From contig CAYNFQ010000001.1 in the NCBI GenBank assembly GCA_964396715.1, positions 117,873 through 181,872 on the forward strand: a stretch of DNA of 64,000 nt, written 5' to 3'. Source of the DNA: an uncultured Gammaproteobacteria bacterium (GTDB lineage: Bacteria > Patescibacteriota > Microgenomatia > Daviesbacterales > UBA10151). Positions 32,167 through 53,984 of this stretch are shown one piece after another. The notes beneath the pieces were generated by a model. That model ran no database searches. It saw only the letters and a list, made by a program, of their open reading frames with translations, and was not told the DNA's origin. Each line of letters starts with the position of its first letter. Within the stretch, counting starts at the first letter, position 1. The position numbers were made by a program, and so were the translations under genes.

Positions 32167-32226
32167 ATAAGTTCCAAAATTGCATTATGTAAGCAGAACA
32201 ACTGTATTATACAATATATAGATCTT

Positions 32227-34377
32227 ATGATGGATATTAAAAAAAATTTGAGTCCACTAATTATTTTAATAGTTTGTTTGATCCTTATTTTTGTATGGTT
32301 TAACAAGGGTTTGCTTTTTGCAGGTGGAGAGGGGGGAATCCCTTTTTATAACCTTTCAAAAACTGCAGAGCGCATTTCTTATCTTTGGATAGATGAAGAG
32401 GCTGGTTATCCGGGTGTAGGCAATCTAACAGAAGTCCCTTACTATGCATTGCTTAAGATCCCTTTGCAGTTTGGTGTGCCTTCAAATCTGGTTCAGGCTT
32501 TTCATTTTTTCTTGGTTATGTTTACCGGCGTGGTTTCTGTATATTTTCTGATAAAAATAACCATAGAGGAAGAACTTAAAAAAAATCTTAATTTTTGGGG
32601 CGCAAAATATATATCTTTGATTGGCGCTATCTTCTATTTATTAAATCCTTTTTCCATGTCGCAGGTTTTTGGCAGGAGTTTAAATATTCAATATCTTTCT
32701 TTTGTATTGCTGCCTTTATTTCTCCTGCTGTATATCAGGGGACTTAAAACAAGAAATCTAATATATGGCTTTTTAAGCTTGATACCTTCTTTTATCTTCT
32801 CAGGAGCGTATGGCAGTTTTGGATATATACCAGCACTTTGGTTTCTGGTATTTCTTTATACTGTATTTTACCTTTGGAAAAATAGAAGTAAAAGAGAAAT
32901 TATTTTTGGTATTTTTTTCTTATCTTTTGTTTTTCTCAGCTGGATCATGGTAAATCTTTTTTGGATTATTCCGGTTTTTAAATTAGGGGGACAACAACTG
33001 GCAGCTTCCCTTAATGCGACAGAGGAAAATCTTGGGTCTTTAAGAGGGGTGAGTAAGCATTTTTCTCTGCCTATTCTTATCAGGCTTCTTCATACAGGAT
33101 ATTTCTATGAGGATTTATACGGGATTGTTTATTCAAGTTTATTCTTTGTGATTATAAGTTGGATAATTCCTGTAGTGTCATTTTTTTCATTAACCCTTTT
33201 TAAGAAAGTAACCAGTTTTAAATTCTACCTGACTTTATTTGTAATTTCCCTTTTTATATCTTTAGGTTCTAATTTCCCAACAGGCTGGTTATTTGAATTC
33301 ATATTTGAAGCTGTACCTGCATTTCAAATGTACAGGAATCCTTATGAAAAATTTGGGCTGATTTTTCTTTTAGCCTATACCCCATTTTTTGCATTGGGGA
33401 CTCTGGTTTTGTCAGAAAAATTAGCTGCCTTTTTTAAACATCAACGTTTAAAGTATTTTTGGGTGGTGCTCATTCTTTTTCTGGTGAGTGGCATTTTTGT
33501 TTGGCCAATGTGGAAGGGAATTTTTGCAGGAGGTTACAGGATCAATACCTGGATAAACGTACCTGATTATTATAAAAATGCTAACGATTGGTTAAATCAG
33601 CAGGATGGAGATTTTAGATTGTTGCATCTTCCTTTAATTCCAGGAGATGGCATAAGGTATAAGTGGGATCATCCATATCAAGGCATTGAACCGTCTGAAT
33701 TTTTATTTGATAGAGCATCAATAGCTCAAAATATTCCTTTTAACAAACAATATTACAATGTTTTACTTCAGCGCATTGGGATTTTCCAGCCAAATATTTT
33801 TGGTTCTGATCCTGATTTGACAAATTCGGAATTTAAATCCGAAAAATTAGGGGAAGAGTTAGCGAAATTAAATATTCGATATATAGTTTTACATAATGAT
33901 ATTGATGTTAGTTTCGGTGGTTTCAAAACACCACAAGAAACTGCAGTCTATTTGGCCAAAGATAAAAAAATAATCAAAGTTAAAAGTTTCGGTCAGCTGG
34001 ATATATATGAGGTGGAAATTCCCCAAAATATTCAAATTATTTATTCTCCATCAACTACTTTAATCTATGAAAAAATTAACCCCGCTTTTTATAAAGTAAA
34101 AGTTACTGATGAAGTTAAACCTTTTAATTTGAATTTTCTTATGTCTTACAATTCAAATTGGCACGCTGTTATTGATGGTGAAGTAATACAGGATCATGTA
34201 AAATTATTTTCGTATGGAAATTCCTGGGAAGTTAACAAAACCGGCAGTTTTGAAATAGATTTAGTTTATAAACCGCAGGAACTGGTTAAACAGGGACAAA
34301 TAATTTCAACGTTTTCGTTTATAGTAATATCTCTGCTGATGGTCTGTTACCAAATTATATGGAAAAAAAGAATTTAA
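32227..34377 (+). CDS. Large polytopic membrane protein, family B (N-terminal multi-TM GT-C-like domain + C-terminal extracytoplasmic beta-rich domain)
   Basis: Shares WFxxGLxFxGGxxGxxFxN, RNPYEKFG, LLHLPLIPGDGIRYKWDHPYQGIEPSEF, IRYIVLHND motifs with the giants at 38636, 42468 and 46347. Confidence 0.65.
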   Translation: MMDIKKNLSPLIILIVCLILIFVWFNKGLLFAGGEGGIPFYNLSKTAERISYLWIDEEAGYPGVGNLTEVPYYALLKIPLQFGVPSNLVQAFHFFLVMFTGVVSVYFLIKITIEEELKKNLNFWGAKYISLIGAIFYLLNPFSMSQVFGRSLNIQYLSFVLLPLFLLLYIRGLKTRNLIYGFLSLIPSFIFSGAYGSFGYIPALWFLVFLYTVFYLWKNRSKREIIFGIFFLSFVFLSWIMVNLFWIIPVFKLGGQQLAASLNATEENLGSLRGVSKHFSLPILIRLLHTGYFYEDLYGIVYSSLFFVIISWIIPVVSFFSLTLFKKVTSFKFYLTLFVISLFISLGSNFPTGWLFEFIFEAVPAFQMYRNPYEKFGLIFLLAYTPFFALGTLVLSEKLAAFFKHQRLKYFWVVLILFLVSGIFVWPMWKGIFAGGYRINTWINVPDYYKNANDWLNQQDGDFRLLHLPLIPGDGIRYKWDHPYQGIEPSEFLFDRASIAQNIPFNKQYYNVLLQRIGIFQPNIFGSDPDLTNSEFKSEKLGEELAKLNIRYIVLHNDIDVSFGGFKTPQETAVYLAKDKKIIKVKSFGQLDIYEVEIPQNIQIIYSPSTTLIYEKINPAFYKVKVTDEVKPFNLNFLMSYNSNWHAVIDGEVIQDHVKLFSYGNSWEVNKTGSFEIDLVYKPQELVKQGQIISTFSFIVISLLMVCYQIIWKKRI

Positions 34378-38000: not shown

Positions 38001-38682
38001 TCACCGGCATGAATTTGAAAAAGATTCACAGAGCAAGTTTAAATTATTTTTAATGGCTATATCCGATCCATTGTCTTGGGTTGTTGATAAATCGGTAAGG
38101 TCAATATTGGATTTGGGGTGCGGTCAGGGCAAGCCAATGGCTATGATCAAACTTTGGCACAAAATAGATACTGCGGTGGGAGTTGAGCTATATAAGCCGT
38201 ATATTAAACTTGCAAGAAAGCAGAAGTTACACGATAAATATATTATTGGAGATGTAAGAGAGGTTAATTTTAAACCAAAATCTTACGATTTAGTTTTAGC
38301 CTCCCATGTTCTAGAGCATCTTCCTAAAAAGGATGCATGGAAACTTTTGAGCAAGATGGAAAAAATTGCCAAGATGCAAATTATTGTGGCAACGCCGATC
38401 GGAGCAATTTATCAACCTGCTTTTGATGATAATAAACTCCAGCAACACAAATCACATTTTCTGCCGGAAGAATTTGAAAAAAGAGGTTACAAGGTGATCA
38501 AATACGGTTTAAGATTTCTTTTGGATGAACATTCCGGGGGATTAGTTTACAAATTTAGCAATCCTACTGTTAAAAAAATTATCTATATTGTTAATTTTTT
38601 AATGACTCCTCTTTACTATCTATTCCCTCAAATTTGTGATTATTCGTTTGTGGCCTACAGGAGTATTAATAGTGAAAATTAA
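37990..38682 (+). CDS. Class I SAM methyltransferase, tandem paralog of the C-terminal domain of 36444..38000
   Basis: ILDLGCGQGKP...ASHVLEHLPKKDAWKLL...FLPEEFEKRGYKVIKYGLRFLL collinear with fused domain; start at Met13 of ORF. Confidence 0.7.
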   Translation: MKHNHRHEFEKDSQSKFKLFLMAISDPLSWVVDKSVRSILDLGCGQGKPMAMIKLWHKIDTAVGVELYKPYIKLARKQKLHDKYIIGDVREVNFKPKSYDLVLASHVLEHLPKKDAWKLLSKMEKIAKMQIIVATPIGAIYQPAFDDNKLQQHKSHFLPEEFEKRGYKVIKYGLRFLLDEHSGGLVYKFSNPTVKKIIYIVNFLMTPLYYLFPQICDYSFVAYRSINSEN

Positions 38683-41600
38683 AGATTACCTCTCAGTTGC
38701 CTTTTTATTTATTTTGTCAACTATACTTATTTTGATTTGGTTTAAGCAAGGACTGGCATTTGGCGGAGGAGACGTAGGTTTGCCCACTTTTAACCCCCAA
38801 AGGATTTTTCAATTTATCAGTCATATCTGGTGGGAAGCATCAGCCCCGGGTTTTCCAAGACCCCAGGGAATAACGGGTACCCCCTTTTATTTTTTGTTGT
38901 CCTTATTACAAAAAATAATTCCCTCATATGTATTAATGCAGGCTTTAATCTTCTGGTTGGTACTTTTTTTTATGGGGCTGGGTATGTACCTGGTTTCAAA
39001 AAGCGTTTTCGGAAAAGAAAAAGTGCTAATACCTCTTGTCTCCAGCATACTGTATCTCGTTAATCCTTATATGCAAATTTCAGTTTGGCATAGGTTTGTG
39101 CACACCACTTTTTTTCTGGCATCGACACTGCCTTTTTTGTTTATTTTTTGGCGCAGGTGGATTACATCAGGAAAACGATTAGATCTTCTTATTTTTTCTT
39201 TAATTAATGTTTTAGGTGCAATAATTTTCAGCACTTTGGGGTTTGTGATCAGTTTGTGGGTTTTTTTATTTTTTACCTCTTTTTTTATTATTTTTATACC
39301 GCGAAAAAGTTTATTCGAGGCAAAAACAATTATAGTAAGATCTACTGCGGGATTTATTGTTTGGGTATTTATATCTTTGTGGTGGATTTTGCCCCTTTTT
39401 GCTACTTCGCAGGCGATTTTTTCCAGACAGCACTCTTCAGCTGAGAGTGTAACAAACTTAATTGTTTTAAGCAACCAAACGGCAATTCCCAATACCTTGC
39501 AGGGAATTAACCCTTTTTATTTGTTTGAAGAAAAAGAATGGGGGGAAATTTACAATCAGTGGTATTTTCTACTGATGCCATTCATCCTAGTTACCCTGGC
39601 AGTTTTGGGGTTTGTAAGGGGTTTGGGTGATCGCAAATTTATTTTTTGGAGCCTGCTTTTTTTAGTAAGCATAATTTTTGCCAAAGGGGCGGCAGCCCCT
39701 TTTGGAGGCGGTTTTGTATATTTGTTTAGTAAATTTTTTGTATTGGGAGTTTTGAGAAATCCGTTTGAGAAAATAGGTATTTTTATACCCTTTACTTACG
39801 CCATCCTTATCCCGATAGGCTTGATCACTTTTTTTAAATTTGCCAAAAAAGCGAAACTTCAATATATAGTTATGCCATTTGTATCTATATTGCTGATTTT
39901 GATTTTAGTCATTTGGCATTGGCCATTTTGGCAGGGAAAATTATTCGGAAGCCAATATAGTCCGCCCGAAGTTCAGGTACCGGATTATTATTTAAAGGCA
40001 GATAATTGGATAAAGGAACAAGGAAAGGATGGAAGAATTCTTCACCTGCCGCTGGTTGTCGGTGAAGCAACTGCGTATAAGTGGGAGTATGGCTACAGAG
40101 GTGTTGAGCCGAGCCAGGTTTTTTTCACTTCAAATCCTTCTCTGTCCCAGGGGTTTAATTTAAGCTTTTTGGATGATGCGCTAGCAACGCTGCAGATATT
40201 TTTAAACAGGAGTGATTTTGTTGATGAAGATCAAATCAGGCAACTTCTTAAAATTTTTGGGATCCGATACATTGTTTTACATCTTGATATGGATCCAACA
40301 TATATGGACGTATACAACCCAATAAGGCTTAAAAAACAATTGGGTCAGCTTAAGTTTCTAAAAAAACAGAATGAATTCGGCAAACTTATTATATATGAGG
40401 TTCTGGAAGAAAACCCTATCATTTTTACAGCTTCATCTTTTGATTATTTACTAATGGGAGAGAAAAATCAATTTTGGCCCTGGTTAATTAAGAATAAAAA
40501 CAATCAACTTATCTCAGGGATAGACTTGGATGAAGATTCGATTCATACGGATCATTCGATAGTAGTTGCTTCTTTCTCATTTGATACACCGCCCTCAAAT
40601 CCCGTGGAAGAAAAAATAGAATTGGATCAGCTTCCATCTGTCCGGATACTACCAGGATCCCCCTTTTATTTTTTAATAAGGCTGAAAGAGTACTTTGAAA
40701 CATATTCTGTTTTTGGGAAAGAACGTATTTCAAAACAAATCCTCTTTGCCAGTAAAAGGCTTGTGGAAGCGGTTAAGATAAAGGAACTTGATAAAAACAA
40801 CCAAATCTCGGCAATTTTAACAGATTATTCAGACCTTTTGGACAAGCTGAAACTATCATTAAAAGGGGCATTTCCCTATGAAAAATCTGCAGTTGATGCA
40901 ATATTTGCAAGACATAGTGTTATTTTAGATTCACTTACAGATTCCGCTGTTACAGGTAGTGAGAAGGAAATTGTAGTAAAAGCTAAAGAAAAATTGGCCG
41001 AAGATTTGAGTTTATGGGGTTTGCGGCCTCTTATCGCTTTTAATAAAGAAACATCATTGTATAACAGAAGAGTATTTACATTTCAGGTTTCGAAAACAGG
41101 GGATTATGAGGTTTTATTCGGCCTGGATAAAGGAAATAGCTTTGATGAAATTTTTGATATAGCTTTGGATGGAAAACCGATCTTAAAAAATAATCCGACT
41201 GATCTGGAACAACCGGTCAAAATAATAAGTTTCGGCAAAATATATTTAGAGCCAGGTTATCATGAATTAAGTTACCGTTCCAAAAAAATTCCCGTAAATA
41301 TTTTATCGCTTGATAAGTGGTTTAAGTCGGAAAAAGGCGAGTTTAGCGGAAACTCAGATGAGATGAGTATAAGCAGTGAGATAAATGAAACAGCGAGCAT
41401 GCAATTGCCTATGAAAGATTTTATTGCCGGGAATACTTATATACTTCGATTTGAATACTGGGTTCAAAAAGGCAAGGGGCCGATAGTGCAAGTACTTTCG
41501 GATAACGACCCAATAATAAAAGGTAAAAGAGAGATGAAAGCAGATAAGCAGTTTGCCGCCGAAACCTATAACCGTTATTGGCAAAATGCGTTTGTGAGTT

Positions 41601-42139
41601 TTGAACCCCGTTTGTCAGCCGATGATACTTTAATTGAGATATCGGTTGAACCCTGGAATGATTGTGAGATAATCAGCCCGATTCGTTCGACTTGCAAGAT
41701 TAAGAAATTTAGAAAACAATTTGACAGAAAAAGCACATTGATTGTCAAAAATGTTGTCCTTGAAAGAATTTCCAGGTCTGAGATTTTTCTTAAAACCTCA
41801 AATAGCAAAATTAAAGAGTCTACAAATTCAGGCAGGGTTGAATATGCTAGGGAAAACCCTTCTTTTGTCAGGGGGAAATTAAAAATCGATAAACCCCAAG
41901 TTTTGGTATTCGCTGAAACTTTCGATAAGGGTTGGAAGTTAGATTTATTTAAAGAGGGTAGAAAAATTAATCCTCAGGAGCATTTATTGGTAAACGGTTA
42001 TGCTAATGGTTGGTTGGTAAAGGAAGCTGGAGAATATGAATTCTCTATCAATTTTGACGCCCAGAAACTAGTCAACATAGGCGGTATAATATCTATGATA
42101 ACTTTGGGGGGATTACTATTATGGCTTATCAGAAAATAA
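38636..42139 (+). CDS. Giant (1167 aa) polytopic membrane protein, family B; N-terminal ~570-aa multi-TM GT-C-like module and ~600-aa C-terminal extracytoplasmic domain
   Basis: WFKQGLAFGGGDVGLPTFNPQRI...WWEASAPGFPRPQG, VLRNPFEKIG, ILHLPLVVGEATAYKWEYGYRGVEPS, IRYIVLHLDMD, C-terminal NGYANGW; alternative GTG start at 38672. Confidence 0.7.
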   Translation: MIIRLWPTGVLIVKIKDYLSVAFLFILSTILILIWFKQGLAFGGGDVGLPTFNPQRIFQFISHIWWEASAPGFPRPQGITGTPFYFLLSLLQKIIPSYVLMQALIFWLVLFFMGLGMYLVSKSVFGKEKVLIPLVSSILYLVNPYMQISVWHRFVHTTFFLASTLPFLFIFWRRWITSGKRLDLLIFSLINVLGAIIFSTLGFVISLWVFLFFTSFFIIFIPRKSLFEAKTIIVRSTAGFIVWVFISLWWILPLFATSQAIFSRQHSSAESVTNLIVLSNQTAIPNTLQGINPFYLFEEKEWGEIYNQWYFLLMPFILVTLAVLGFVRGLGDRKFIFWSLLFLVSIIFAKGAAAPFGGGFVYLFSKFFVLGVLRNPFEKIGIFIPFTYAILIPIGLITFFKFAKKAKLQYIVMPFVSILLILILVIWHWPFWQGKLFGSQYSPPEVQVPDYYLKADNWIKEQGKDGRILHLPLVVGEATAYKWEYGYRGVEPSQVFFTSNPSLSQGFNLSFLDDALATLQIFLNRSDFVDEDQIRQLLKIFGIRYIVLHLDMDPTYMDVYNPIRLKKQLGQLKFLKKQNEFGKLIIYEVLEENPIIFTASSFDYLLMGEKNQFWPWLIKNKNNQLISGIDLDEDSIHTDHSIVVASFSFDTPPSNPVEEKIELDQLPSVRILPGSPFYFLIRLKEYFETYSVFGKERISKQILFASKRLVEAVKIKELDKNNQISAILTDYSDLLDKLKLSLKGAFPYEKSAVDAIFARHSVILDSLTDSAVTGSEKEIVVKAKEKLAEDLSLWGLRPLIAFNKETSLYNRRVFTFQVSKTGDYEVLFGLDKGNSFDEIFDIALDGKPILKNNPTDLEQPVKIISFGKIYLEPGYHELSYRSKKIPVNILSLDKWFKSEKGEFSGNSDEMSISSEINETASMQLPMKDFIAGNTYILRFEYWVQKGKGPIVQVLSDNDPIIKGKREMKADKQFAAETYNRYWQNAFVSFEPRLSADDTLIEISVEPWNDCEIISPIRSTCKIKKFRKQFDRKSTLIVKNVVLERISRSEIFLKTSNSKIKESTNSGRVEYARENPSFVRGKLKIDKPQVLVFAETFDKGWKLDLFKEGRKINPQEHLLVNGYANGWLVKEAGEYEFSINFDAQKLVNIGGIISMITLGGLLLWLIRK

Positions 42140-42483
42140 AATCAGTATCCATAAGGTTGTTTATTTTGTTTCTTTCAATAGTATTGATTTATTATACTAA
42201 TGGTAATGCCGGCAGTGAATCTTTTGGAAATATTCAATCTGCAATTTTGTCAGCAGGTTTGATTGTTGCAGTGTATTTACCTGCTAAGAGGCCTTTCATA
42301 CTTCTCTTTGCCATTTTAATGTGGTCTGTTATGATAGGATTTTACCTGGTAGAAGCTCGGGATTATGCTTACTTTTTCGGCAGTATAGGTTTTGGGATAA
42401 TATTTCTGGTAATCTTAACTTATGTTCCGGAACTTTTAAAAACAGGTTATATAGCCGATTTTCAAAAATGGTTCAAAGATTAA
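42121..42483 (+). CDS. Small (120 aa) 3-4 TM membrane protein following giant B1
   Basis: Hydrophobic; C-terminal GSIGFGIIFLVILTYVPELLKTGY resembles GSLGIGILAILIFSYFGDFVKRGF of 45935..46264. Confidence 0.5.
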   Translation: MAYQKIKSVSIRLFILFLSIVLIYYTNGNAGSESFGNIQSAILSAGLIVAVYLPAKRPFILLFAILMWSVMIGFYLVEARDYAYFFGSIGFGIIFLVILTYVPELLKTGYIADFQKWFKD

Positions 42484-45400
42484 CAAAATTTTTTTTCAAT
42501 AATAATTTGAACAGTCATTTTTTTGCGTTATTTACGTTTTTTTTACTCAGTGTATTTCTTGTTTTCAGCTGGTTTAGACAAGGCTTAATTTACGGGGGAG
42601 GAGATGTTGGTTTGCAGACCTTTAATCCCCAAAGGATACTGGAAATCTCCCAATTTATCTGGTGGGAAGCAACCGCCCCCGGTATTCCGGTTCCCCAGGG
42701 TTTAACCGCCATACCATTCAATTTTGCCTTTTCTATTTTACAATCCATAGGTTTTAGCCCGTTTTTACTTCAGGCAAGCTTGTTTTTTCTTATACTTTTC
42801 TTCTGTGGTCTGGGAATGTATTTTCTTATTTTATTTTTGTTTGGGGACAGGTATAAAATTTATGCAATTTTGGCGGGATTATTCTATATGGTTAATCCAT
42901 ACATGATGATTTCGGTTTGGCACAGGTTTGTCCACTCAACGTTCTTCTTTATTTCGGCTCTGCCTTTTTTAACTATTTTCTGGCTGAAGTGGATCAGGAA
43001 CAAAAATCCGATATCACTCCTGATTTTTTTATTAATTAACCTTATTTCCTTGTATGCTTTCGGGACGATTGCCTATATTCTTACCCTCTGGCTTTTCCTT
43101 TTTCTAATCACTATTCCTGAAATAATTTTTTCCTGGCAAGGCCTAAAAAATTTTAAGAAAATATTGACGGTTTTTTTAGTAGGTTTCTTTTTTTGGGTTT
43201 TGACAAATGCCTGGTGGTTGGTGCCTATATTTAAAATCTCTCCGACTGCTTTGTCGGAGCAACACAGTAATGAAGAAACTTTATCTACACTAATAAATAT
43301 AAGCAGACAAACTATACTTCCCTACTCATTACAAATGATCAATCCTTTCTATTTATTTTACCAGCTGGATTTGGGGAAAAGTTACCAGAATGTTTTTATC
43401 CGTGTCCTCCCTTGGATTTTTGTTTCAGTTATTTTTATCGGATTAATAAGGGCTTTGTTCAATAAAGACATGGCAAGATGGACTCTGGTTTATCTTGCCG
43501 TAATATTTTTTGCCAAAGGCGCGGCTTCCCCCTGGGGTTTTATATATATCTTTGCCTTAAAATATTTTTTCCCCCTCGGGGTGCTGCGGAACCCGTTTGA
43601 AAAAATTGGTATTCTGTTACCTCTGGTAAGCACAATTTTATTTATCATTGGATTAAAATTTGTTTATGAAAGCCTAAGACATAAATTCAGCGTGAGGGTT
43701 GCAGCAGTTAGCCTGGTAGTTGTTTTTGGATCTGTTTTTATTTTTTGTTTGCCCTTATTCGGAGGGAGAATATTTGGTAGGTTTGATAAACCGGAATTTG
43801 TAAGTGTACCGCAATCTTATAAGGATGCGGATAATTGGATTAAATCCGACTATGAAAAGAATAAAAATCAAAATCCAGGCAAGATTTTACATTTGCCCCT
43901 GACAAGAGGTGAAAGCATTAATTATAATTGGGAATATGGCTACAGCGGACTGGAATCCAGTGCATTATTCTTTACAGCCGCCCCTTCTATTTCTCACGGG
44001 TTCAATCTCAGGAGAACTGATGATTCTTTGACAACGCTTTATTATTCGCTTCGAAATAGTCATTTATTTGATCAGAATATTACAAAAAGACTCTTGAGTG
44101 ATTTTAATATTGCCTACATTGTGTTGCATAAAGATGTGAAATGGCAGGGTTCTGATTTGTACAATCCCGCAGAGACAGAGGAGGTTTTAAATAAATTAAA
44201 TTTTATTAAACTTGAAAAAACCTTTGGAGATTTAATGATTTATAAAGTATTGGAAGAGAATTTTAATCCGAAGATTTTCATAAGCGGAAACTATCACATA
44301 ATTTATCCTCCCAATACTTTTAGCGTACAGCCCTGGATAGAAGCGTCAGGTAGTTCCATCATAACTTCCGTAGATATTGAAGATAATCGAAAATTGGAGG
44401 AATTTTCCCGAAGCACTACAATTTTTTCTAAAAGCTCCTTTGTTTATACAGAGGCATCATCTTCTTCAATTGTGTCAACTATAAATGCATTGGTTTCCAA
44501 TCCGGCAAGTAAAGACTTATGGTTAGATTCATTAATTAAAATCAGGCCGATTTTGAAACAAAATGGTGAGATCCAGGCAGAAGAATTTAGCAGTCAAATA
44601 ATTTATGCCAGTGAAAAAATTTTAAAAATAATGAGAGGATTTGCTTTAGAGAAAAATGATCCTTCCCCAAAAGAGGTAGACGATTATGGTCAAATAGTTA
44701 AAAACCTCTTTTCTGCCAATACCTACAGTCCCAGACTACAACTTTACGCTAACAGTACACAGCTCAGTCAGATATTCCAGATTCATTTATACATTCTCAA
44801 AATAATTTCTGAAATAACCCAATCAGAAACCAGAAACAATTTGATAAGGGTTTTAGATCTGTTAAAAGAAAATTTATCCAGAAATAATCTTATTCCCGAT
44901 TCTTCGGAGATGCAGGCTATCTCATCAAGAAGAGATGTTTATAAATTTGAAGTGCCTTATGATTCGGATTACAAAATTATCCTTGCATTTTCCAAGGACA
45001 AATCTATTTATCAAAATAAATTAGATAAGCTATTTTTTATCCTTGACGGTAAACCACTTAATTTTAAGGGAGAGGTAGAAAATGACCTAATTTCATTTGG
45101 TCCTGTATCCATTGCAAAGGGGTCACACATGATTAGTTTTCCGGTCCTTTTATCGGATAATTTATCAGTTATCGCTAATTTTATTAAGGGGGGGGAGGTT
45201 AATTTATCAGATGATGGTAATTTTTATCTTAAGGGGGCTGACACTAATTTAAGCTTTCTAGAAAGTAGAATAAACAATACTTTTGGACAAGACATATTTA
45301 AAGTAAACTTCGATGTAAAAGTAGAAAAAGGAAACGGTTTTAATTTTCAACTTTTGCAGGATACGGACACCATTGATCAAACCGGCCAGCCGAATTTGGC

Positions 45401-45938
45401 AATAAATCAGAAGATTTTCCAACCGGAGGGAACAGATTGGCTAGAGTATGATTTTTTTCTGCCGCCTCTCAGGTTTAATACGGATACTGTTGCCATAAGA
45501 TTTGTAGCTAATTCTCCCATAAAAGTAAGAAATTTAAAAATTGAGAGAGTATTTAACGGAGACGTTTTTTTAAGGGATATTAAATCTTTTAATAAGATAA
45601 ATGATAAAGGAGCGGGTAAGGTAGATTTCTATCAAAAAAACCCTGCCCTTTACAGAGGTAAGATTTATTTGGATAAACCATCCTTTATAATATTTTCAGA
45701 ATCTTTTCATCCCGGTTGGAAATTAGTTTTATCTAAACAGGGCAAAGATTATATTCCTACCATTCATACAATGGCAAACCTTTATGCAAATGCCTGGTAT
45801 ATTGATAAAGACGGCGAATATGATTTTAAGCTGGAATTTGAACCTGAAAGAATAGTGAAAATTGGCTCTCTATTGGCATTAGCAGGTTATTTGAGTCTTA
45901 TAATCTATATTATCTTAAAAAATAGAAAAAATAGATGA
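42468..45938 (+). CDS. Giant (~1156 aa) polytopic membrane protein, family B paralog
   Basis: WFRQGLIYGGGDVGLQTFNPQRI...WWEATAPGIPVPQG, VLRNPFEKIG, ILHLPLTRGESINYNWEYGYSGLESS, IAYIVLHKDVKW, LYANAW; start at Met50 of ORF (overlaps 3' end of small protein gene). Confidence 0.7.
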   Translation: MVQRLTKFFFNNNLNSHFFALFTFFLLSVFLVFSWFRQGLIYGGGDVGLQTFNPQRILEISQFIWWEATAPGIPVPQGLTAIPFNFAFSILQSIGFSPFLLQASLFFLILFFCGLGMYFLILFLFGDRYKIYAILAGLFYMVNPYMMISVWHRFVHSTFFFISALPFLTIFWLKWIRNKNPISLLIFLLINLISLYAFGTIAYILTLWLFLFLITIPEIIFSWQGLKNFKKILTVFLVGFFFWVLTNAWWLVPIFKISPTALSEQHSNEETLSTLINISRQTILPYSLQMINPFYLFYQLDLGKSYQNVFIRVLPWIFVSVIFIGLIRALFNKDMARWTLVYLAVIFFAKGAASPWGFIYIFALKYFFPLGVLRNPFEKIGILLPLVSTILFIIGLKFVYESLRHKFSVRVAAVSLVVVFGSVFIFCLPLFGGRIFGRFDKPEFVSVPQSYKDADNWIKSDYEKNKNQNPGKILHLPLTRGESINYNWEYGYSGLESSALFFTAAPSISHGFNLRRTDDSLTTLYYSLRNSHLFDQNITKRLLSDFNIAYIVLHKDVKWQGSDLYNPAETEEVLNKLNFIKLEKTFGDLMIYKVLEENFNPKIFISGNYHIIYPPNTFSVQPWIEASGSSIITSVDIEDNRKLEEFSRSTTIFSKSSFVYTEASSSSIVSTINALVSNPASKDLWLDSLIKIRPILKQNGEIQAEEFSSQIIYASEKILKIMRGFALEKNDPSPKEVDDYGQIVKNLFSANTYSPRLQLYANSTQLSQIFQIHLYILKIISEITQSETRNNLIRVLDLLKENLSRNNLIPDSSEMQAISSRRDVYKFEVPYDSDYKIILAFSKDKSIYQNKLDKLFFILDGKPLNFKGEVENDLISFGPVSIAKGSHMISFPVLLSDNLSVIANFIKGGEVNLSDDGNFYLKGADTNLSFLESRINNTFGQDIFKVNFDVKVEKGNGFNFQLLQDTDTIDQTGQPNLAINQKIFQPEGTDWLEYDFFLPPLRFNTDTVAIRFVANSPIKVRNLKIERVFNGDVFLRDIKSFNKINDKGAGKVDFYQKNPALYRGKIYLDKPSFIIFSESFHPGWKLVLSKQGKDYIPTIHTMANLYANAWYIDKDGEYDFKLEFEPERIVKIGSLLALAGYLSLIIYIILKNRKNR

Positions 45939-46264
45939 AAAAAATGTTGCTTAAAACTTTTTTTGTAATAATGTCTTTTTTTATCTTTTGGTGGCTGGAA
46001 TCCGGCTTGAAAATAGAAGAAATTAGCGCAATTATTAAGCCTTTAATATTTGCCCTCTCAGTTTCAATGACTTTTTCAATTAAACTTCGAAGGTATTTAT
46101 TATACATAAGTTTCTTGTTTTATTGTCTGATGATTTTTCTATATTTAATTTGGCAAATAAGCTTAGCAAACCTTGCAGGAAGTTTAGGAATTGGGATACT
46201 GGCTATCTTGATATTTAGCTATTTTGGTGATTTTGTAAAAAGGGGTTTTGTTGAGAAGCTATGA
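45935..46264 (+). CDS. Small (109 aa) membrane protein following giant B2
   Basis: ATGA overlap with giant stop; 3 hydrophobic segments; C-terminal motif shared with 42121..42483. Confidence 0.5.
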   Translation: MKKMLLKTFFVIMSFFIFWWLESGLKIEEISAIIKPLIFALSVSMTFSIKLRRYLLYISFLFYCLMIFLYLIWQISLANLAGSLGIGILAILIFSYFGDFVKRGFVEKL

Positions 46265-46350
46265 AATACCTATTCTCACTTATTTTATTTTTTCTGATAG
46301 TAGCATCGGTATTTTTTTATATTTTGGGGGTTAGATTTAAGAAAAAATGA
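46261..46350 (+). CDS. Micro-ORF, 29-aa single-TM peptide MKYLFSLILFFLIVASVFFYILGVRFKKK
   Basis: ATG overlaps upstream TGA (46261-46264), its TGA overlaps ATG of giant B3 (46347-46350); below ORF-track length cutoff. Confidence 0.35.
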   Translation: MKYLFSLILFFLIVASVFFYILGVRFKKK

Positions 46351-49031
46351 AGAAAAGAATTGCCTTAATGTTTTTTCTGATCTTACCCTTTTTTTGGATT
46401 TTTTGGTTACCTGGCCCTAGGGTGGCAACAGATTATCACCTGACCACAAAGGAAACCCAGCTGGATAACCTGTTTCCCTGGATCTGGAGAGAAACCAGTG
46501 TGGCAGATGGTTTGGGGGAATATACTGCTATTACTCTTTGGTCACAGCCGCTTCATTCATTTTTCGCCAGTCTATATCAGATTAATTTACCTTTTTCATT
46601 TTTGACAAAGCTGCTTGTCGGATTAATTATCCTGCTTAGTATTATTTCCATGCTCAAGCTTTTAGATTATTTGAAAATTAAAAGTCCGTATCAAGAAGTT
46701 GGTGTAATTTTTTACATATTAAATACATTTTTTTTACTTCTCCTTGACGGTGGACAGTTGGCCTTGACACTTGCTTACGCAGTTTTTCCTCTCTCGGTTT
46801 ATTGTTTTCTGCTACTCATGCAAACAGCAAATTTGAAAAGAAGACTTTTATTTGCTTTCAGCGTCCTGGCAATTTCCATATTTGATATCAGGATTGTTTA
46901 TTTGCTGTTTATGGTCTGTGCCATTTTTGTCCTGTTTAAATTTTTTTTATCACCTTCAAAAAAAGAAGTTGTTTTAGTTTTTAAAGAGGTTTTACTATCA
47001 GCAATATTTACCATACTGATAATTTTTCCCTTTCATGCTTACTGGATACTACCTGCTTTAGTTGTTAAGACACCACAGTTGCCGCAGACTTATGAGAGAG
47101 TTTCCCAGATAGATTTTTTAAGCTTTTCCACACTGCTTCATTCCCTAATTTTGAATCAGCCCCACTGGTATAAAAATATCTTTGGTAAAATATCAGAGGT
47201 AAGTTTTGAGTTTTTGCTGATTCCCGCAACAGCTTTTATCTCTTTAGCCCTAGTTAGGAGAAATACCCAGGTTGCTTTCTGGTCACTTATTGCAATCTTG
47301 GGAATTTTTCTCTCCAAGGGTTCAAATCCACCCCTGCCTCAAATTTATTCTTATCTTTTTGCCAGCATTCCCGGATTTTCAATTTTCCGTGATCCTGCCA
47401 AATTTTATTTTCTAATTTGTATCGCGTACACAATATTAATAGGATTTTCTCTTCAGGCGATGGGTAAGTTAGCAAAAATTATCCCATTTGTTTTTCTTTT
47501 GTATATAGTCTGGCTTGCCAGGCCGGTATATCTTGGACAAATGAGCGGACTATTTTCCTTCCCATCTTTTGAAAAAGAATTTAATTTACTATCAGAGGTA
47601 ATAAAAGAAGACAAACAATTCTCCCGGGTTTTCTGGATTCCCAATTCAGCACCTTTAGGTTATGTTGGTCCCAATCACCCGCAAGTTGAAGCTTCCAGGT
47701 TATCTAAAAAAAGGCCTTTTGCCGCAGCAACAGTAGGAACTTATGAGACATTTAATTTCTTAAGAGAGGCACCTTTCATGGGAGAAATTTTTGATGTGTC
47801 GGGGATTGGATATATTGCATATCCCTATATAGACAAACAAAGGGAGGAGGCGGATTTTGATAAAGAAAAATATTACTACACATTTTTAAATCAACTGTCC
47901 AAACTTCCCTGGGTTTCCAAAGTTGAATATTCGGGTATGCCGCTGCTTAAAGTCAAAAATCACCAGGATAAATTTTTTGTTACGGGAAATACCTGGTGGA
48001 TAATAGGGGATGATAGTTTATATAAAGAGTCAACCAAAAGTGCTACGCTTAAATTATCCAAAAACAGTTTGATTTTTACCGAAGAGCATGCGGGTTTGGG
48101 GAAAAGACTGGATGAGGTTTCGGATGCCAAAATTATACTGAATAAAAAAAGCAACATAGACCTTGCAGCAAGTTTTATTGATGCCTCAAAACTTTTTTTT
48201 CCGGCAAAAAGCCTTAATTTCAGTCCCGATGAATCAGGTTGGTGGAAAAGGGAGGCGGTGGATTTGGTTTGGTGGAGAGATTTTTTACAAAACAAATACG
48301 GGATAGATAATAAGGATTTTGATTTAGGAGGAGGATGGGCGGTGGGGGAAGGGTATTCAAAGTTCAAAGTTCAAAGTTCAAAGTTCAAAAAGGACAATAT
48401 TTTGCTGGCAAGAGTAATGGAAAGTTCCAGAAGTGGGAATTTGAAATTTTATCAAGACAATCAACTAATCGGGGAAGTGGGAACTAAAATTAACGGAGAT
48501 GCCAATGTTAGATGGTTTGAAGTAGGGGAGTTAAGTGGAAATGGTAGCGGGATTGCTATAGAGTCCACAGGAGATATTAATGTGGTTAATACATTGGCAG
48601 TTTTGGACAAAAACGACTGGGATAGTTTAAAGGATAAAGCCGATAAGCTGCAGGGGAGAGTGGTAAGTTTTGATGACAAGAGTATACAAAATGTAACCGG
48701 CTCCATGGTTTCTTACCGGAGGATAAACCCCACTAAATATATTGTAAATATAGACGGTTTAACAAAGCCGTCATTGTTAGTATTTTCCCAAAATTATGAT
48801 AGTTTATGGAAGATGAGTGGTCAGACTCCCCTGCCACGTTCAGCTAACATGAACGTGGCTCTGCCGGTGTATAGTTTGCTGAATGGATTTAGAGTGGAAC
48901 AGGACGGAGAGTATATTGTTGAATTTGAGGCGCAAAAGTATGTTTATTTAGGGTTAGCAATCTCCATAATGACTTTGCTTACAATAACTTTTCTACTCAT
49001 CTTAGGCACCAGGAGATCATCTAGGCTATAA
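46347..49031 (+). CDS. Giant (894 aa) polytopic membrane protein, divergent family B paralog
   Basis: N-terminal multi-TM, FRDPAKFYFL (aligns to RNPFEKIG), C-terminal LLNGF...DGEYIVEFEAQKYV like DGEYEFSINFDAQK of B1. Confidence 0.65.
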   Translation: MKKRIALMFFLILPFFWIFWLPGPRVATDYHLTTKETQLDNLFPWIWRETSVADGLGEYTAITLWSQPLHSFFASLYQINLPFSFLTKLLVGLIILLSIISMLKLLDYLKIKSPYQEVGVIFYILNTFFLLLLDGGQLALTLAYAVFPLSVYCFLLLMQTANLKRRLLFAFSVLAISIFDIRIVYLLFMVCAIFVLFKFFLSPSKKEVVLVFKEVLLSAIFTILIIFPFHAYWILPALVVKTPQLPQTYERVSQIDFLSFSTLLHSLILNQPHWYKNIFGKISEVSFEFLLIPATAFISLALVRRNTQVAFWSLIAILGIFLSKGSNPPLPQIYSYLFASIPGFSIFRDPAKFYFLICIAYTILIGFSLQAMGKLAKIIPFVFLLYIVWLARPVYLGQMSGLFSFPSFEKEFNLLSEVIKEDKQFSRVFWIPNSAPLGYVGPNHPQVEASRLSKKRPFAAATVGTYETFNFLREAPFMGEIFDVSGIGYIAYPYIDKQREEADFDKEKYYYTFLNQLSKLPWVSKVEYSGMPLLKVKNHQDKFFVTGNTWWIIGDDSLYKESTKSATLKLSKNSLIFTEEHAGLGKRLDEVSDAKIILNKKSNIDLAASFIDASKLFFPAKSLNFSPDESGWWKREAVDLVWWRDFLQNKYGIDNKDFDLGGGWAVGEGYSKFKVQSSKFKKDNILLARVMESSRSGNLKFYQDNQLIGEVGTKINGDANVRWFEVGELSGNGSGIAIESTGDINVVNTLAVLDKNDWDSLKDKADKLQGRVVSFDDKSIQNVTGSMVSYRRINPTKYIVNIDGLTKPSLLVFSQNYDSLWKMSGQTPLPRSANMNVALPVYSLLNGFRVEQDGEYIVEFEAQKYVYLGLAISIMTLLTITFLLILGTRRSSRL
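48356..48390. repeat. Heptanucleotide tandem repeat (TTCAAAG)x4 + 1 imperfect inside giant B3 CDS (encodes SKFKVQSSKFKK)
   Basis: ttcaaagttcaaagttcaaagttcaaagttcaaaa; same CAAAGTT unit as 13593-13627. Confidence 0.9.
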
Positions 49032-49040
49032 TAAGTTAAT

Positions 49041-50303
49041 ATGCTCAGGACGATCTTAAAAACAGCTACTTTGAGACAATCGAGTATTACTTTTGTAGGG
49101 ACAGTTTTAAATGGGTTTTTGGGAGCACTGTTCTACATAGTTATCGCCAGAATTTTGGGGCCCGCGGAATTTGGCTTACTCACTATCTCCATTACCACCT
49201 TAACACTGATTGCCGACATTTCTGATATAGGTACCAATACCGGCTTAATCAGATTTGTTTCTGCCAATTTAGTATCCAGTAAAGATAAGGCATTAAGGTT
49301 TTTAAGACTCAGTTTAGAGGTAAAATTTTTAGTTTGGGCAGCAGTCTCGGTAATAATTTATTTTGCCTCACCATTTTTAGCAGAAATGGTATTTCATAAA
49401 GAAGAACTGGTTACTCCTCTTCGTCTAGCGGTCATCGGTGTAGGGGGAGCCCTTCTTTTTACATTTGCTACCTCTTCACTTCAGGCTTATCAAAGATATT
49501 TTCTGTGGAGTACAATTAATATTTTGACCAATGCCTTAAGACTTATTTTAATAATTATCTTAGGTACTTTTATACATCTTAATATTGAAAATAGTTTGCT
49601 TATTTATATTACTTTACCTTTTTTTGGTTTTTTTGTTGCCCTATTTTTTCTACCAGCTAGAGAAATTTTAAGAAGTAAAAATGAATTCAGTTTAGCAAAG
49701 GAGCTTTTTCAATATAATATCCCGGTGGCGATTTTTACAGTGATCGCAGCTTTCTCAGCCAGATTAGATATCTACTTAAACGCTGCTCTACTGAGCGCCC
49801 ATAAGGTAGGTATTTATGGAGCAGCCACTCAACTGGTTCAGGTGATGCCGCAACTGGTATCGGCTATTGGATTGGTTGCTGCGCCCAAATTTGCCAGCTT
49901 TCAAAACGATGAACAGATGTTAGTGTATTTAAAAAAACTACAGCTTTTAGTGACAGGGTTATGCTTAGCAGGAATTCTATTCATCCCTTTTGTTATTTAC
50001 CTGATACCGCTGCTTTTCGGAACCCAATATCAGGAGGCAATATTACCCTTTATATTTTTATTTTTTGCTATGTTAGTATTTCTTTTCTCAGTACCCGTTC
50101 ATAACAGTGTGATTTTTTATTTTGGCAGACCGGATGTTTTCATCTGGGTTTCCATAGGACATTTATTAATAATCGGGGGGTTAGGGTATTTGATGATTTC
50201 CAACTTGGGAATGGTGGGAGCATCGATTACAGTACTGATAGGAACAACTTTTAACTTTTTATATCCATTAGCGTGGATGCTTTTGAAGTTAAGGAAAAAA
50301 TAA
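49041..50303 (+). CDS. Wzx-like oligosaccharide flippase (MOP/polysaccharide biosynthesis protein family)
   Basis: 420 aa, ~12 TM segments, N-terminal pattern typical of PF01943-type flippases. Confidence 0.7.
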   Translation: MLRTILKTATLRQSSITFVGTVLNGFLGALFYIVIARILGPAEFGLLTISITTLTLIADISDIGTNTGLIRFVSANLVSSKDKALRFLRLSLEVKFLVWAAVSVIIYFASPFLAEMVFHKEELVTPLRLAVIGVGGALLFTFATSSLQAYQRYFLWSTINILTNALRLILIIILGTFIHLNIENSLLIYITLPFFGFFVALFFLPAREILRSKNEFSLAKELFQYNIPVAIFTVIAAFSARLDIYLNAALLSAHKVGIYGAATQLVQVMPQLVSAIGLVAAPKFASFQNDEQMLVYLKKLQLLVTGLCLAGILFIPFVIYLIPLLFGTQYQEAILPFIFLFFAMLVFLFSVPVHNSVIFYFGRPDVFIWVSIGHLLIIGGLGYLMISNLGMVGASITVLIGTTFNFLYPLAWMLLKLRKK

Positions 50304-51788: not shown

Positions 51789-52525
51789 AAACGCTTTCCA
51801 TTATTATTCCTGTATATAACGAGGAAAAAACTGTTGGAGTATTATTAGGAAAGGTAGTAGATGCGAAATTACCCGCAGGTTTCAAAAAAGAAATAATTAT
51901 TATTGATGATGGATCAACCGATAAAACTGAATCAGTTTTATCGAAATGTCAAATGTCAAACCTGTCTGCCGTCAGGCAAGATGTCAAATGTCAAATTTTT
52001 AGACATAATACAAATCAGGGTAAAGGTGCTGCCATAAGAACAGGTTTAAAGCATGTGACAGGAGACTATATTATTATCCAGGATGCGGACTTGGAATATA
52101 ATCCTGCTGATTATAAAGAGTTGCTTAAGCCGATTTTGGAAAAAAAGGCTAAGGTAGTATACGGCACCAGGTTAAAAAACTATCCATTAAGGTTGTGGGG
52201 GGAAAATAAGACAATACTGCCCTTGCATTTAATAGCAAATAAGTTTTTAACTTTTATGACAAATATGCTTTATGGAAGTAAACTCTCTGATATGGAAACC
52301 TGTTATAAATTATTGACAAAAAATGTCCTAACTGGTTTTGATTTGCAATCAAACAGATTTGAAATTGAACCGGAGATAACCGCCAAAATATTAAAAAGAG
52401 GATTTTCAATTTTAGAAATCCCGATCAAAGTTACTCCCAGAACACACAAAGAAGGTAAAAAAATCAGCTGGAAAGATGGATTTAGGGCTGTATTTAGCTT
52501 AGTTAAATATCGATTTTATGACTAG
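51785..52525 (+). CDS. GT2 polyprenyl-phosphate sugar synthase (DPM1/ArnC-like), paralog of 7739..8455, carrying an in-frame repeat insertion
   Basis: LSIIIPVYNEEKTV...IIIDDGSTDKT, QDADLEYNP; insertion CQMSNLSAVRQDVKCQI absent from paralog. Confidence 0.75.
   Translation: MKTLSIIIPVYNEEKTVGVLLGKVVDAKLPAGFKKEIIIIDDGSTDKTESVLSKCQMSNLSAVRQDVKCQIFRHNTNQGKGAAIRTGLKHVTGDYIIIQDADLEYNPADYKELLKPILEKKAKVVYGTRLKNYPLRLWGENKTILPLHLIANKFLTFMTNMLYGSKLSDMETCYKLLTKNVLTGFDLQSNRFEIEPEITAKILKRGFSILEIPIKVTPRTHKEGKKISWKDGFRAVFSLVKYRFYD
51944..51994. repeat. Composite element inside GT2 CDS: (AAATGTC)x2 - 20-nt core cctgtctgccgtcaggcaag - (ATGTCAA)x2; the core is the reverse complement (1 mismatch) of the 28-nt repeat unit at 61240-61312
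   Basis: Read directly; reverse complement of cttgcctgtcggcagacagg (61255-61274) is cctgtctgccgacaggcaag. Confidence 0.8.
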
Positions 52526-53984
52526 AAAAATTATATTTTTTTTAGGGTTAATAGTATTATTATCAGCTTTCTTAAGATTTTATCATCTGGGAAACAATTA
52601 TATTTTTGGGTTTGATGAAGAGTATCAGGCCACATATGCTATGACTTTGGTTAAGGATATTCATCCTATTTGGATTGGTGTAAGCGCCTCATTTTTGGAT
52701 TATTATTTAGGCCCTTACTTTACTTATTTTAGTGCTTTCTGGCTGATGCTTTCCCAGGGCGATCCTCTGATGACAGCCTATGTTGCCGCTACTGCGGGTG
52801 TTATTACGACAATCGTGATATTTTTTGTGGGGTGGAAATTTTTCAATTTAACTGCCGGAGTGGTCAGCTCGCTTCTCTACGGTGGATTGTCATTGATTGT
52901 TTTTTATGACCAAAAATATTGGAATCCGATGTTTGTCCCCCTCATTGTGCTTTTGATGTTTACTTCCCTTTTGCTGATAAAAAGATCGCCCTGGTGGTGG
53001 TTGCTTTACTCTGCAACGGTAGGGGCAATCTTTGAAACCGACCTTGCTCCCCTGCCGCTGGTGTTAATTGGAGTTTGGTATTTTATAAAAGGAAAATATT
53101 TTCTCAACAAGAGGCTTACTTTAGGCTGTCTTGCGGTATTCCTTTTGTTTTATTGGCCGCTTTTAGTTTTTGACTATCACCATAACTTTAGCAATCTGAC
53201 GGTTTTAGCAAGATACAGTCAGCAGGCAAAACAATCCGGAGCTAAATTTGACCCCAAGAGTAAATTAATGTCAGTTGCAGATACCATGGGCAGGTTTTGG
53301 TATTTAAAACCGGGAGCTCCTAATGCTGATGAATTAAATATTTTTTGCAACTCTCAAAGAACATATCCCTCTCCCTGGGTTTCCGGCATATCTGCTATCT
53401 TACTTTTATATTTTATTAGTACAAGTATTAAAACAGGGAAGAGAGCACATAAGATGCTGGTATATTTTTTGGTAGTATCACTGGGATTTTATTTAATTTA
53501 TACAGGCGGTTCTTTTGAATATTATCTTCATGGTTTCATCACTTTGTTTACTTTAACTGTGGGGATTTTAGTCAGCCAACTTAATAAAAAACTTCAGCCG
53601 GCAGCTTTAATTTTAGTAGCAGTGATTTTAGTATTAGGATTTAACACGGTTTTAAATTCATCAGACAAATATAGCTTGGCACCAAAGAAAAAATTAATAG
53701 CTGAAGTAATGTCGGTGGTTGGCCCCAACAGTTTTTCCATAGATCAGATGGGTACTTGCCACATTTATGAAGGGTGGAGGTATTTATTTAAAATTTACGG
53801 AAAAACACCCTCCATGAGTTTTACAGATCAAAACTTTGCCTGGTTATATCCCCAAGAGGTTAATGATGGCTCCCTCAACTATCATGTAATTTTATCGGAA
53901 TATGGAGTAACTCCGGATCGAGATTTAAGCGGATACGTTAATATTAATGAAGGAGGTTTTTCCGCCTATATTAAAAAAAATTGA
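52518..53984 (+). CDS. GT-C fold membrane glycosyltransferase, ArnT/PMT-like (GT39/GT83)
   Basis: N-terminal LRFYHLGNNYIFGFDEEYQATYAMTL (DE motif in first loop), 488 aa, ~11 TM; follows a polyprenyl-P-sugar synthase GT2. Confidence 0.7.
   Translation: MTRKIIFFLGLIVLLSAFLRFYHLGNNYIFGFDEEYQATYAMTLVKDIHPIWIGVSASFLDYYLGPYFTYFSAFWLMLSQGDPLMTAYVAATAGVITTIVIFFVGWKFFNLTAGVVSSLLYGGLSLIVFYDQKYWNPMFVPLIVLLMFTSLLLIKRSPWWWLLYSATVGAIFETDLAPLPLVLIGVWYFIKGKYFLNKRLTLGCLAVFLLFYWPLLVFDYHHNFSNLTVLARYSQQAKQSGAKFDPKSKLMSVADTMGRFWYLKPGAPNADELNIFCNSQRTYPSPWVSGISAILLLYFISTSIKTGKRAHKMLVYFLVVSLGFYLIYTGGSFEYYLHGFITLFTLTVGILVSQLNKKLQPAALILVAVILVLGFNTVLNSSDKYSLAPKKKLIAEVMSVVGPNSFSIDQMGTCHIYEGWRYLFKIYGKTPSMSFTDQNFAWLYPQEVNDGSLNYHVILSEYGVTPDRDLSGYVNINEGGFSAYIKKN

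Follow-up and report, generated by a model that had tools for sequence, protein, structure and literature searches.

Candidate small membrane subunits of AftD-family GT-C glycosyltransferases in a surface-glycan cluster of Candidatus Daviesbacteria

The GT-C glycosyltransferases of bacteria are commonly considered to act as single chains and, to our knowledge, PglB, AglB, ArnT and other bacterial and archaeal enzymes of this class are taken to have one subunit only; in the eukaryotic oligosaccharyltransferase, the GT-C subunit STT3 is bound by Ost4, a mini-protein with a single transmembrane (TM) helix. Small proteins are also found next to other glycosyltransferase genes: in the GacI-GacJ and PpgS-Rv3632 systems, a small membrane protein of the DUF2304 family, whose gene is always adjacent to that of a GT-A glycosyltransferase, forms a complex with the GT-A and stimulates it, and in Mycobacterium tuberculosis, the small open reading frame (ORF) Rv0236A (“small secreted protein”) is annotated beside aftD (Rv0236c). 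The mycobacterial AftD forms 1:1 complexes with other membrane proteins, e.g. TmaT. In its own chain, 11 GT-C TM helices and the periplasmic domains are followed by helix TM12 and, after a cytoplasmic loop of 18 residues, by a bundle of four helices (TM13-16). This bundle has been described as a membrane domain in its own right, without equivalent in other GT-Cs; it contacts TM8 and TM9, has both of its termini in the cytoplasm and binds the 4'-phosphopantetheine of the acyl carrier protein (ACP), and its removal abolishes complementation (bioRxiv 10.1101/2019.12.22.885152). Here, we have compared with these systems a locus from a 64,000-nt stretch of a Candidatus Daviesbacteria metagenome-assembled genome (MAG), which we refer to as “the window”; in this locus, the genes of three large AftD-like proteins (“giants” 1, 2 and 3) are interspersed with the genes of two small membrane proteins, small1 and small2, and with a 29-codon micro-ORF. 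Positions refer to the whole window, and its features are on the + strand unless stated otherwise.

The comparison of this locus with its relatives shows each large AftD-type GT-C paired with its own small membrane protein, of four helices or of one to two, and suggests that enzymes of this type act as multi-subunit complexes. In the reading that we prefer, and that we hold with about as much confidence as doubt, the proteins of ~110 aa are four-helix subunits of AftD-family GT-Cs, and the 29-aa peptide, replaced by proteins of 53-57 aa in other loci, is a one- or two-helix subunit of the giant 3 paralog. The preliminary description of this DNA had spoken of accessory subunits of membrane polymerases: the accessory role is the best-supported reading of our data, but we assign the giants to the AftD-type GT-Cs and do not adopt the term polymerases.

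By domain matches, homology and predicted fold, the giants are AftD-family GT-C glycosyltransferases. Giant 1, which is listed at NCBI as “DUF3367 domain-containing protein” (MBI3103838.1), matches PF11847 (GT-C_AftD) with 41.9 bits, the gathering cutoff being 26, and a 749-aa paralog, encoded further upstream, reaches 43.2 bits against the same cutoff. Giants 2 and 3 gave no direct PF11847 match in the Pfam scan; giants 1 and 2 share 34% identity along the entire chain, and giant 3 is similar to the 749-aa PF11847 protein (BLASTP E 5e-18) and to giant 2 (E 1e-7 for the C-terminal domain plus anchor, E 3e-5 for the TM core). Giant 3 also has a weak NCBIfam match to MmpA (E 2e-8), which has been reported to be similar to the first 11 TMs of AftD. 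From 120 homologs, an AlphaFold2 (AF2) model was built for giant 2, with a predicted local distance difference test (pLDDT) score of 89.4; in the comparison with the Protein Data Bank (PDB) by Foldseek, its top matches are three cryo-EM structures of mycobacterial AftD (6w98, 6wby and 6wbx, E 7.5e-16 to 5e-15); the next tier, i.e. STT3, PglB and AftA, appears at E ~1e-5, ten orders of magnitude behind AftD. Searches of the PDB sequences with giant 1 alone or with the giant profile gave no match to AftD, the homologs listed in the last search with the giants were all from Patescibacteria (955-1192 aa) and did not include an actinobacterial AftD, and a tblastn search with the core of giant 1 against plasmids gave no match.

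The giants share with AftD (PDB 6W98) the GT-C core of 11 TMs, the large periplasmic part and the TM helix by which the chain re-enters the membrane: hydropathy and the AF2 prediction place in all of them an N-terminal TM core that extends to residue ~430-460, then a long stretch outside the cytoplasm and, at the C-terminus, a single TM, and the helices of the giant 2 model fit an 11-TM core plus one terminal TM. Exactly one TM is predicted in the last 200 aa of 110 of the 120 giant homologues listed, of which the longest has 1192 aa; none of the 120 has extra C-terminal TMs, and the tail past the last TM is at most 23 residues long. Because their chain ends after one C-terminal TM helix, the giants are without the TM13-16 four-helix bundle of AftD. 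The periplasmic domains also differ from those of AftD (TM-score ~0.45, 10% identity), and the host, a Patescibacterium, has no arabinogalactan. In the periplasmic region of giant 1, residues 671-743, within a helical insert, weakly match DUF5667 (PF18915, E 6e-4), a domain that is also precomputed for many giant homologs. The C-terminal beta-sandwich domains of the giant 2 model (~820-1125) match domains of Vip3/Cry toxins and carbohydrate-binding modules (CBMs) of glycoside hydrolases (E 1e-4 to 1e-6), and the model is consistent with CBM-like domains, as in AftD.

The module that the giants lack may have a counterpart in the genes that follow them. As the preliminary description had proposed, small1 and small2 are homologous: they are true paralogs, both predicted to be 4-helix membrane proteins, with 21% identity in a gapless alignment (pairwise BLASTP, E 2e-7) and a 99.5% probability in the profile-profile comparison of their subfamilies (hhalign, E 5.6e-23). 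In the AF2 model of small2 (pLDDT 84.2), helices 2-23, 31-46, 49-71 and 75-103 form a compact bundle. The conserved residues of the family are M66, G82, S83, G85, G87, Y96, P98, K102 and G104, with G82, S83, G85 and G87 of small2 corresponding to Gly/Ser packing motifs; no conserved charged residue has been found in the helix cores. Since the basic residues cluster at the N-terminus, at the loop between helices H2 and H3 and at the C-terminus, the small proteins are predicted to have an N-in/C-in topology. Their genes have ratios of nonsynonymous to synonymous substitution rates (dN/dS) of 0.18-0.43 (0.21-0.43 for small1, ~0.2 for small2). An exhaustive HMMER search of 1.84 billion protein representatives found only 91 clusters of this family, all of them proteins of 59-139 aa that stand alone. 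Small1, small2 and the micro-ORF product had no match in Pfam or NCBIfam, and no Pfam family recurs among 92 family members; weak matches to DUF2298, a family of large uncharacterised membrane proteins, occur in five of the 92 (best E 0.003), and may be due to chance or may hint at a related helix bundle that is fused in other membrane enzymes.

The tie between the giants and the small genes rests on ~20 independent loci of Daviesbacteria, Microgenomates and other Patescibacteria, obtained from Logan, JGI, ENA and NCBI assemblies, the partner giants being proteins of ~1000-1190 aa or cut by a contig end. At all of the ~31 giant-small junctions of these loci, the small gene lies directly 3' of the giant, with gaps of -32 to 0 nt. 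All family matches adjoin the 3' end of a giant, both in the first 24 loci (35 of 35) and in five later ones (7 of 7), and no unlinked copy was seen in the loci fetched. The small genes equal the type-A giants in number in every locus (2:2 or 1:1), type-1 small genes being paired with type-1 giants and type-2 small genes with type-2 giants, and the distance matrices of giants and small proteins are correlated with r 0.886, a value that none of 5000 Mantel permutations reached. From this pairing of subfamilies and from the correlation of the distances it follows that giant and small gene were duplicated together, as a unit, and have diverged in parallel.

It is this invariant synteny and co-duplication across lineages, rather than the overlap of the genes, that constitutes the real evidence for the tie between giant and small protein. 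The ORF map and the raw sequence confirm the layout given in the preliminary description and show the 19-nt overlap of small1 with the end of giant 1, the 16-nt overlap of giant 2, which starts inside the 3' end of small1, and the chain of three ATGA overlaps that connects giant 2, small2, the micro-ORF and giant 3; the further claim of that description, that such tight overlap implies stoichiometric co-production, is not borne out by the overlaps alone. More than half of the same-strand junctions in the + strand block of the window overlap (22 of 38, 13 of them by ATGA), and for this reason the overlaps, while compatible with translational coupling on sequence grounds, would carry little weight alone.

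The starts of the genes have been chosen according to the conserved N-termini in related loci, which support an ATG start for both small1 (42121) and giant 2 (42468): small1 keeps its N-terminus MxYQKI(K/R)S in L001 and L002, and in the same two loci the conserved N-terminus of giant 2 begins at the position corresponding to 42468, although the ORF listing gives a longer form from a GTG at 42321. The region corresponds to locus tags HYZ05_02755 to 02770 (proteins MBI3103834 to MBI3103838) of a Candidatus Daviesbacteria MAG. In some automated gene calls of public assemblies, the start is placed too late, by 63 nt for small1 (99 aa) and by 9 nt for small2 (106 aa), with respect to 42121 and 45935 in the window and to 5968 and 9728 in L003. 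With the late starts, the basic N-terminus or a part of TM1 is lost; it is the longer forms that are conserved. The positions of all features are listed in Table 1.

Table 1. Genes of the AftD-type locus and neighbouring genes of the same cluster in the window.
Feature	Position	Strand	Length (aa)	Assignment	Match
749-aa AftD-like GT-C paralog	32128..34377	+	749	AftD-like GT-C paralog	PF11847 E 1.8e-11
giant 1	38636..42139	+	1167	type-1 AftD-family GT-C glycosyltransferase	PF11847 E 4.3e-11
small1	42121..42483	+	120	predicted 4-TM partner of giant 1, type-1 subfamily	family HMM E 1.3e-36
giant 2	42468..45938	+	1156 (from conserved ATG)	type-2 AftD-family GT-C	
small2	45935..46264	+	109	predicted 4-TM partner of giant 2, type-2 subfamily	family HMM E 4.6e-43
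micro-ORF	46261..46350	+	29	predicted single-TM peptide	
giant 3	46347..49031	+	894	shorter, distant AftD-like GT-C paralog; candidate partner of the micro/mini protein	
Wzx-type flippase gene	49041..50303	+		Wzx-type flippase	PF01943 E 1.2e-20; PF13440 E 1.6e-18
further multi-TM enzymes	52518..53984, 55679..57082, 57086..58423, 61844..63256	+		same cluster	

With the source being a MAG, and with each small ORF starting inside or at the stop of a giant, one may ask whether the small ORFs are C-terminal pieces of the giants that were split off by frameshift errors in the metagenome assembly. We consider this exceedingly improbable, and the comparison across loci refutes it: the same split is found in more than 20 independent assemblies, with overlap geometries of -32, -19, -17, -14, -11, -4 and 0 nt; every small ORF begins with an ATG of its own and a basic N-terminus that is conserved; and a clean in-frame TAA separates giant and small gene in L022. 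The nearest thing to a fusion is found in this last locus, where the two genes share one frame and are parted only by the stop codon (2030..2035). No evidence of readthrough was found at this TAA, and recoding of UGA was rejected as an explanation, the stop between the genes being TAA.

Taken together, the architecture, the synteny and the co-duplication suggest that the 4-TM protein probably supplies the AftD bundle in trans. The small proteins share with TM13-16 of AftD the four predicted helices, the position after TM12 and the two cytoplasmic termini; unlike the bundle, the four-helix module is here a separate gene product, and its gene starts at the stop of the giant. Since the giants stop at the equivalent of TM12, and since a four-helix protein of N-in/C-in topology starts at their stop codon, the supply of the bundle in trans is the simplest reading of the locus. 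In such an arrangement, the small gene that takes over from the stop codon of the giant would encode the same module as TM13-16; the small protein would be made beside the giant through coupled translation, and would dock on the GT-C core, where it may stabilise or regulate the giant, and the basic cytoplasmic face of small2 would fit seamlessly after the cytoplasmic C-terminus of its giant. What the data show are the gene pairs, their homology, synteny and co-duplication, the AftD-type fold predicted for the giant and the absence of a fused bundle; the physical association of the two proteins, the equivalence to TM13-16 and any ligand are what we infer.

Several observations weigh against these proposals. 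Adjacent genes are expected to co-diverge even where their products are not in physical contact. No fused giant-small protein was found among the 1.84 billion representatives or among the giant homologues listed, and so there is no Rosetta-stone fusion within the detectable homologs. A search of all PDB chain sequences with the profile of the small family (hmmsearch, E<=10) gave no match to AftD, and neither a sequence match nor a fold match was obtained between the small family and the bundle of AftD (residues ~1285-1400). Furthermore, Patescibacteria are often without fatty-acid synthesis, which makes ACP a doubtful ligand for the small proteins.

The main rival to subunits of the enzyme assigns the small proteins to the supply of its substrate: they would be flippases of polyprenyl-phosphate-sugar donors for the neighbouring outer-face GT-Cs, acting as homo- or heterodimers, in analogy to ArnE/ArnF or GtrA/GtcA. 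We regard this as unlikely, albeit as the alternative to be taken most seriously. The ~110 aa and four helices of the small proteins are in agreement with the size and topology of known small flippases (~110 aa, 3-4 TM; PMC8035078), and the order of the E. coli genes arnT-arnE-arnF is the same, with a GT-C gene that is followed by small 4-TM genes with an ATGA overlap; as in the ArnT-ArnE-ArnF and GtrA/GtcA systems, a polyprenyl-phosphate-sugar GT2 is present in the same cluster. A GT2 gene directly follows the small gene in L004, L016, L017, L019 and L026; in L004 and L026, this GT2 is in turn followed by a DUF2304 (GacJ-like) gene, and with a flippase, the set of GT-C, flippase, GT-A and activator would be complete. 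No GtrA-family gene was found among the window ORFs scanned against Pfam. Sequence relationships and gene numbers point in the other direction. The 92-member family shows an hhalign probability of ~0.1% against E. coli ArnE, ArnF and GtrA (0.14% against the latter, YfdG), none of its members matches PF04138, SMR or DUF2304, and the membrane core lacks the conserved charged residue, in particular the membrane-embedded acidic residue, of those systems. Moreover, there is strictly one, co-duplicated, small gene for each type-A giant here, as opposed to one flippase per pathway: a single GtrA-type flippase can serve several GT-A/GT-C pairs, and in known multi-component systems one such flippase serves several GT-C enzymes (PMC8035078). 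Finally, a Wzx-type flippase gene is already present in the cluster. Membership of the established families has thus been rejected in each case: for GtrA (PF04138), by the lack of a match and the comparison with YfdG; for the SMR-type ArnE/ArnF, where gene order alone is alike; and for DUF2304/GacJ (PF10066), of which true genes occur separately, in L004 and L026.

The subunit reading extends to giant 3 through the micro-ORF that precedes it. The preliminary description had taken this 29-codon ORF for a single-TM gene that gene callers miss, and this has been confirmed: NCBI lists no locus tag between HYZ05_02755 and HYZ05_02760, a collection of ~15 billion predicted proteins does not contain the exact sequence of 29 aa, and the ORF has never been called as a gene. 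In the relatives L001 and L002 (~75% identical), the ORF has the same length and both of its ATGA boundaries. In the more distant loci L007, L011, L012, L015 and L025, the same slot is occupied by homologous ORFs of 53-57 aa, which have two TMs, a conserved T/L-x-H-x-G loop and a Y-x-x-E-I-K-like tail and gave no match in the Pfam scan; the 29-mer aligns to TM2 and to the Y-I-L-E-I-K-like tail of these 2-TM homologs and of that in L009, and a further 2-TM homolog is located upstream of a giant 3-type gene in L030. With a dN/dS of 0.15-0.58, the micro-ORF is comparable to the small genes that flank it.

Of 11 lineages, 10 encode a mini-protein immediately before the giant 3-type gene; in L029, no mini-ORF accompanies that gene. 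Because it is present in L009 and L030, where it precedes the giant 3-type gene without a small 4-TM gene before it, the mini-ORF belongs with giant 3. The micro-ORF is a real gene: it represents a shortened form of the 2-TM mini-proteins, a family whose genes accompany those of giant 3, and the initial idea of a further partner placed between the giants has to be given up. As separate observations, two lineages have a gene of 429-481 aa without a Pfam match, on the - strand in both (L029 8870..10159, L030 8580..10025), that separates the small gene from the giant 3-type gene, and the mini-ORF of L030 stays with giant 3 in spite of the inserted opposite-strand gene.

A less generous interpretation would see the small genes as conserved neighbours that are unrelated to the catalysis of the giants, e.g. 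factors of insertion or assembly or of the handling of the acceptor polymer, and the 29-aa ORF as the decaying remnant of a 2-TM gene; we find it less probable still than flippases. Indeed, TM1 and the conserved T-x-H-x-G loop, both present in the 53-57-aa homologs, have been lost from the micro-ORF, one pair of micro-ORFs has a dN/dS of 0.58, the giant 3-type gene of L029 does without a mini-ORF, and overlaps are generic in this genome. Against this interpretation, three lineages of ~75% identity have the 29-codon form with exactly the same length, start and stop; its hydrophobic TM and basic tail are kept, its dN/dS values are similar to those of the flanking small genes, and the 4-TM family was not found away from a giant in the loci fetched.

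As a subunit of giant 3, the mini-protein could have a stabilising role like that of Ost4. The likeness of the locus to oligosaccharyltransferase, i.e. a GT-C catalytic subunit with mini-subunits of one to four TMs, is one of arrangement, and no homology is expected; STT3 does occur in the second tier of the structural matches of giant 2. The arrangement of mini-protein and giant 3 may also be paralleled by Rv0236A beside aftD, a likeness by annotation and by a length of ~57 aa; Rv0236A differs in being annotated as secreted and not as a 2-TM protein. The GacI-GacJ and PpgS-Rv3632 systems provide a precedent for a small membrane protein that adjoins a glycosyltransferase gene, but the partner is a GT-C here and not a GT-A, the small family is not DUF2304, and for GacI-GacJ a natural fusion exists, whereas none is known here. 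Real GT2-DUF2304 pairs do adjoin the small gene in two single-giant lineages (L004 10336..11342, L026 9322..10331), where the small gene is followed by a GT2 of 219-221 aa and a DUF2304 protein; by analogy, they would represent a GacI/GacJ-like pair for the synthesis of polyprenyl-phosphate-sugar, and would complete a multi-component glycosylation cassette.

The locus is part of a large surface-glycan cluster that contains GT4, GT2, fusions of GT2 and methyltransferase, Wzx, PMT_2-type GT-Cs and a Wzy_C protein. The Wzx-type gene follows the giant 3-type gene in the same position in L001, L007, L025, L029 and L030. The further multi-TM enzymes of Table 1 are a 488-aa protein without a Pfam match, two PMT_2-type GT-Cs and a Wzy_C/O-antigen-ligase-like protein; with them, at least six or seven extracytoplasmic glycan-handling enzymes are encoded within ~30 kb. 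The paralog listed with 749 aa probably starts further inside this ORF, at an ATG near MMDIKKN; it has one TM, at its C-terminus, and is without a small partner, and its gene is followed by that of a GT4.

What we believe to be new is a split, multi-subunit AftD-type GT-C, as inferred from the comparisons above, and two unannotated small-protein families; no model in Pfam or NCBIfam covers either of them, and annotation pipelines fail to see the 29-aa form. A broader formulation, which we offer tentatively and would sooner doubt than assert, is that the AftD-type GT-Cs of Patescibacteria are obligate hetero-oligomers, in which the regulatory bundle, part of the AftD chain (TM13-16) in Actinobacteria, forms a subunit of its own that co-evolves with the enzyme, while the partner of a second paralog is a mini-subunit of one or two TMs. 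The C-terminal bundle of AftD is essential in mycobacteria and binds ACP, and a natural split version, with the bundle as a protein of 110 aa on its own, would give a simple genetic and biochemical handle on the role of this module. If this broader formulation is true, these would be the first bacterial GT-C enzymes with dedicated small subunits like those of oligosaccharyltransferase, and the AftD bundle would be an ancient separable module, with a cytoplasmic ligand other than ACP in organisms that are poor in fatty-acid synthesis; if the small proteins are flippases instead, they would represent a new, sequence-unrelated family of lipid-linked sugar translocases. The finding bears on how Patescibacteria build their surface glycans.

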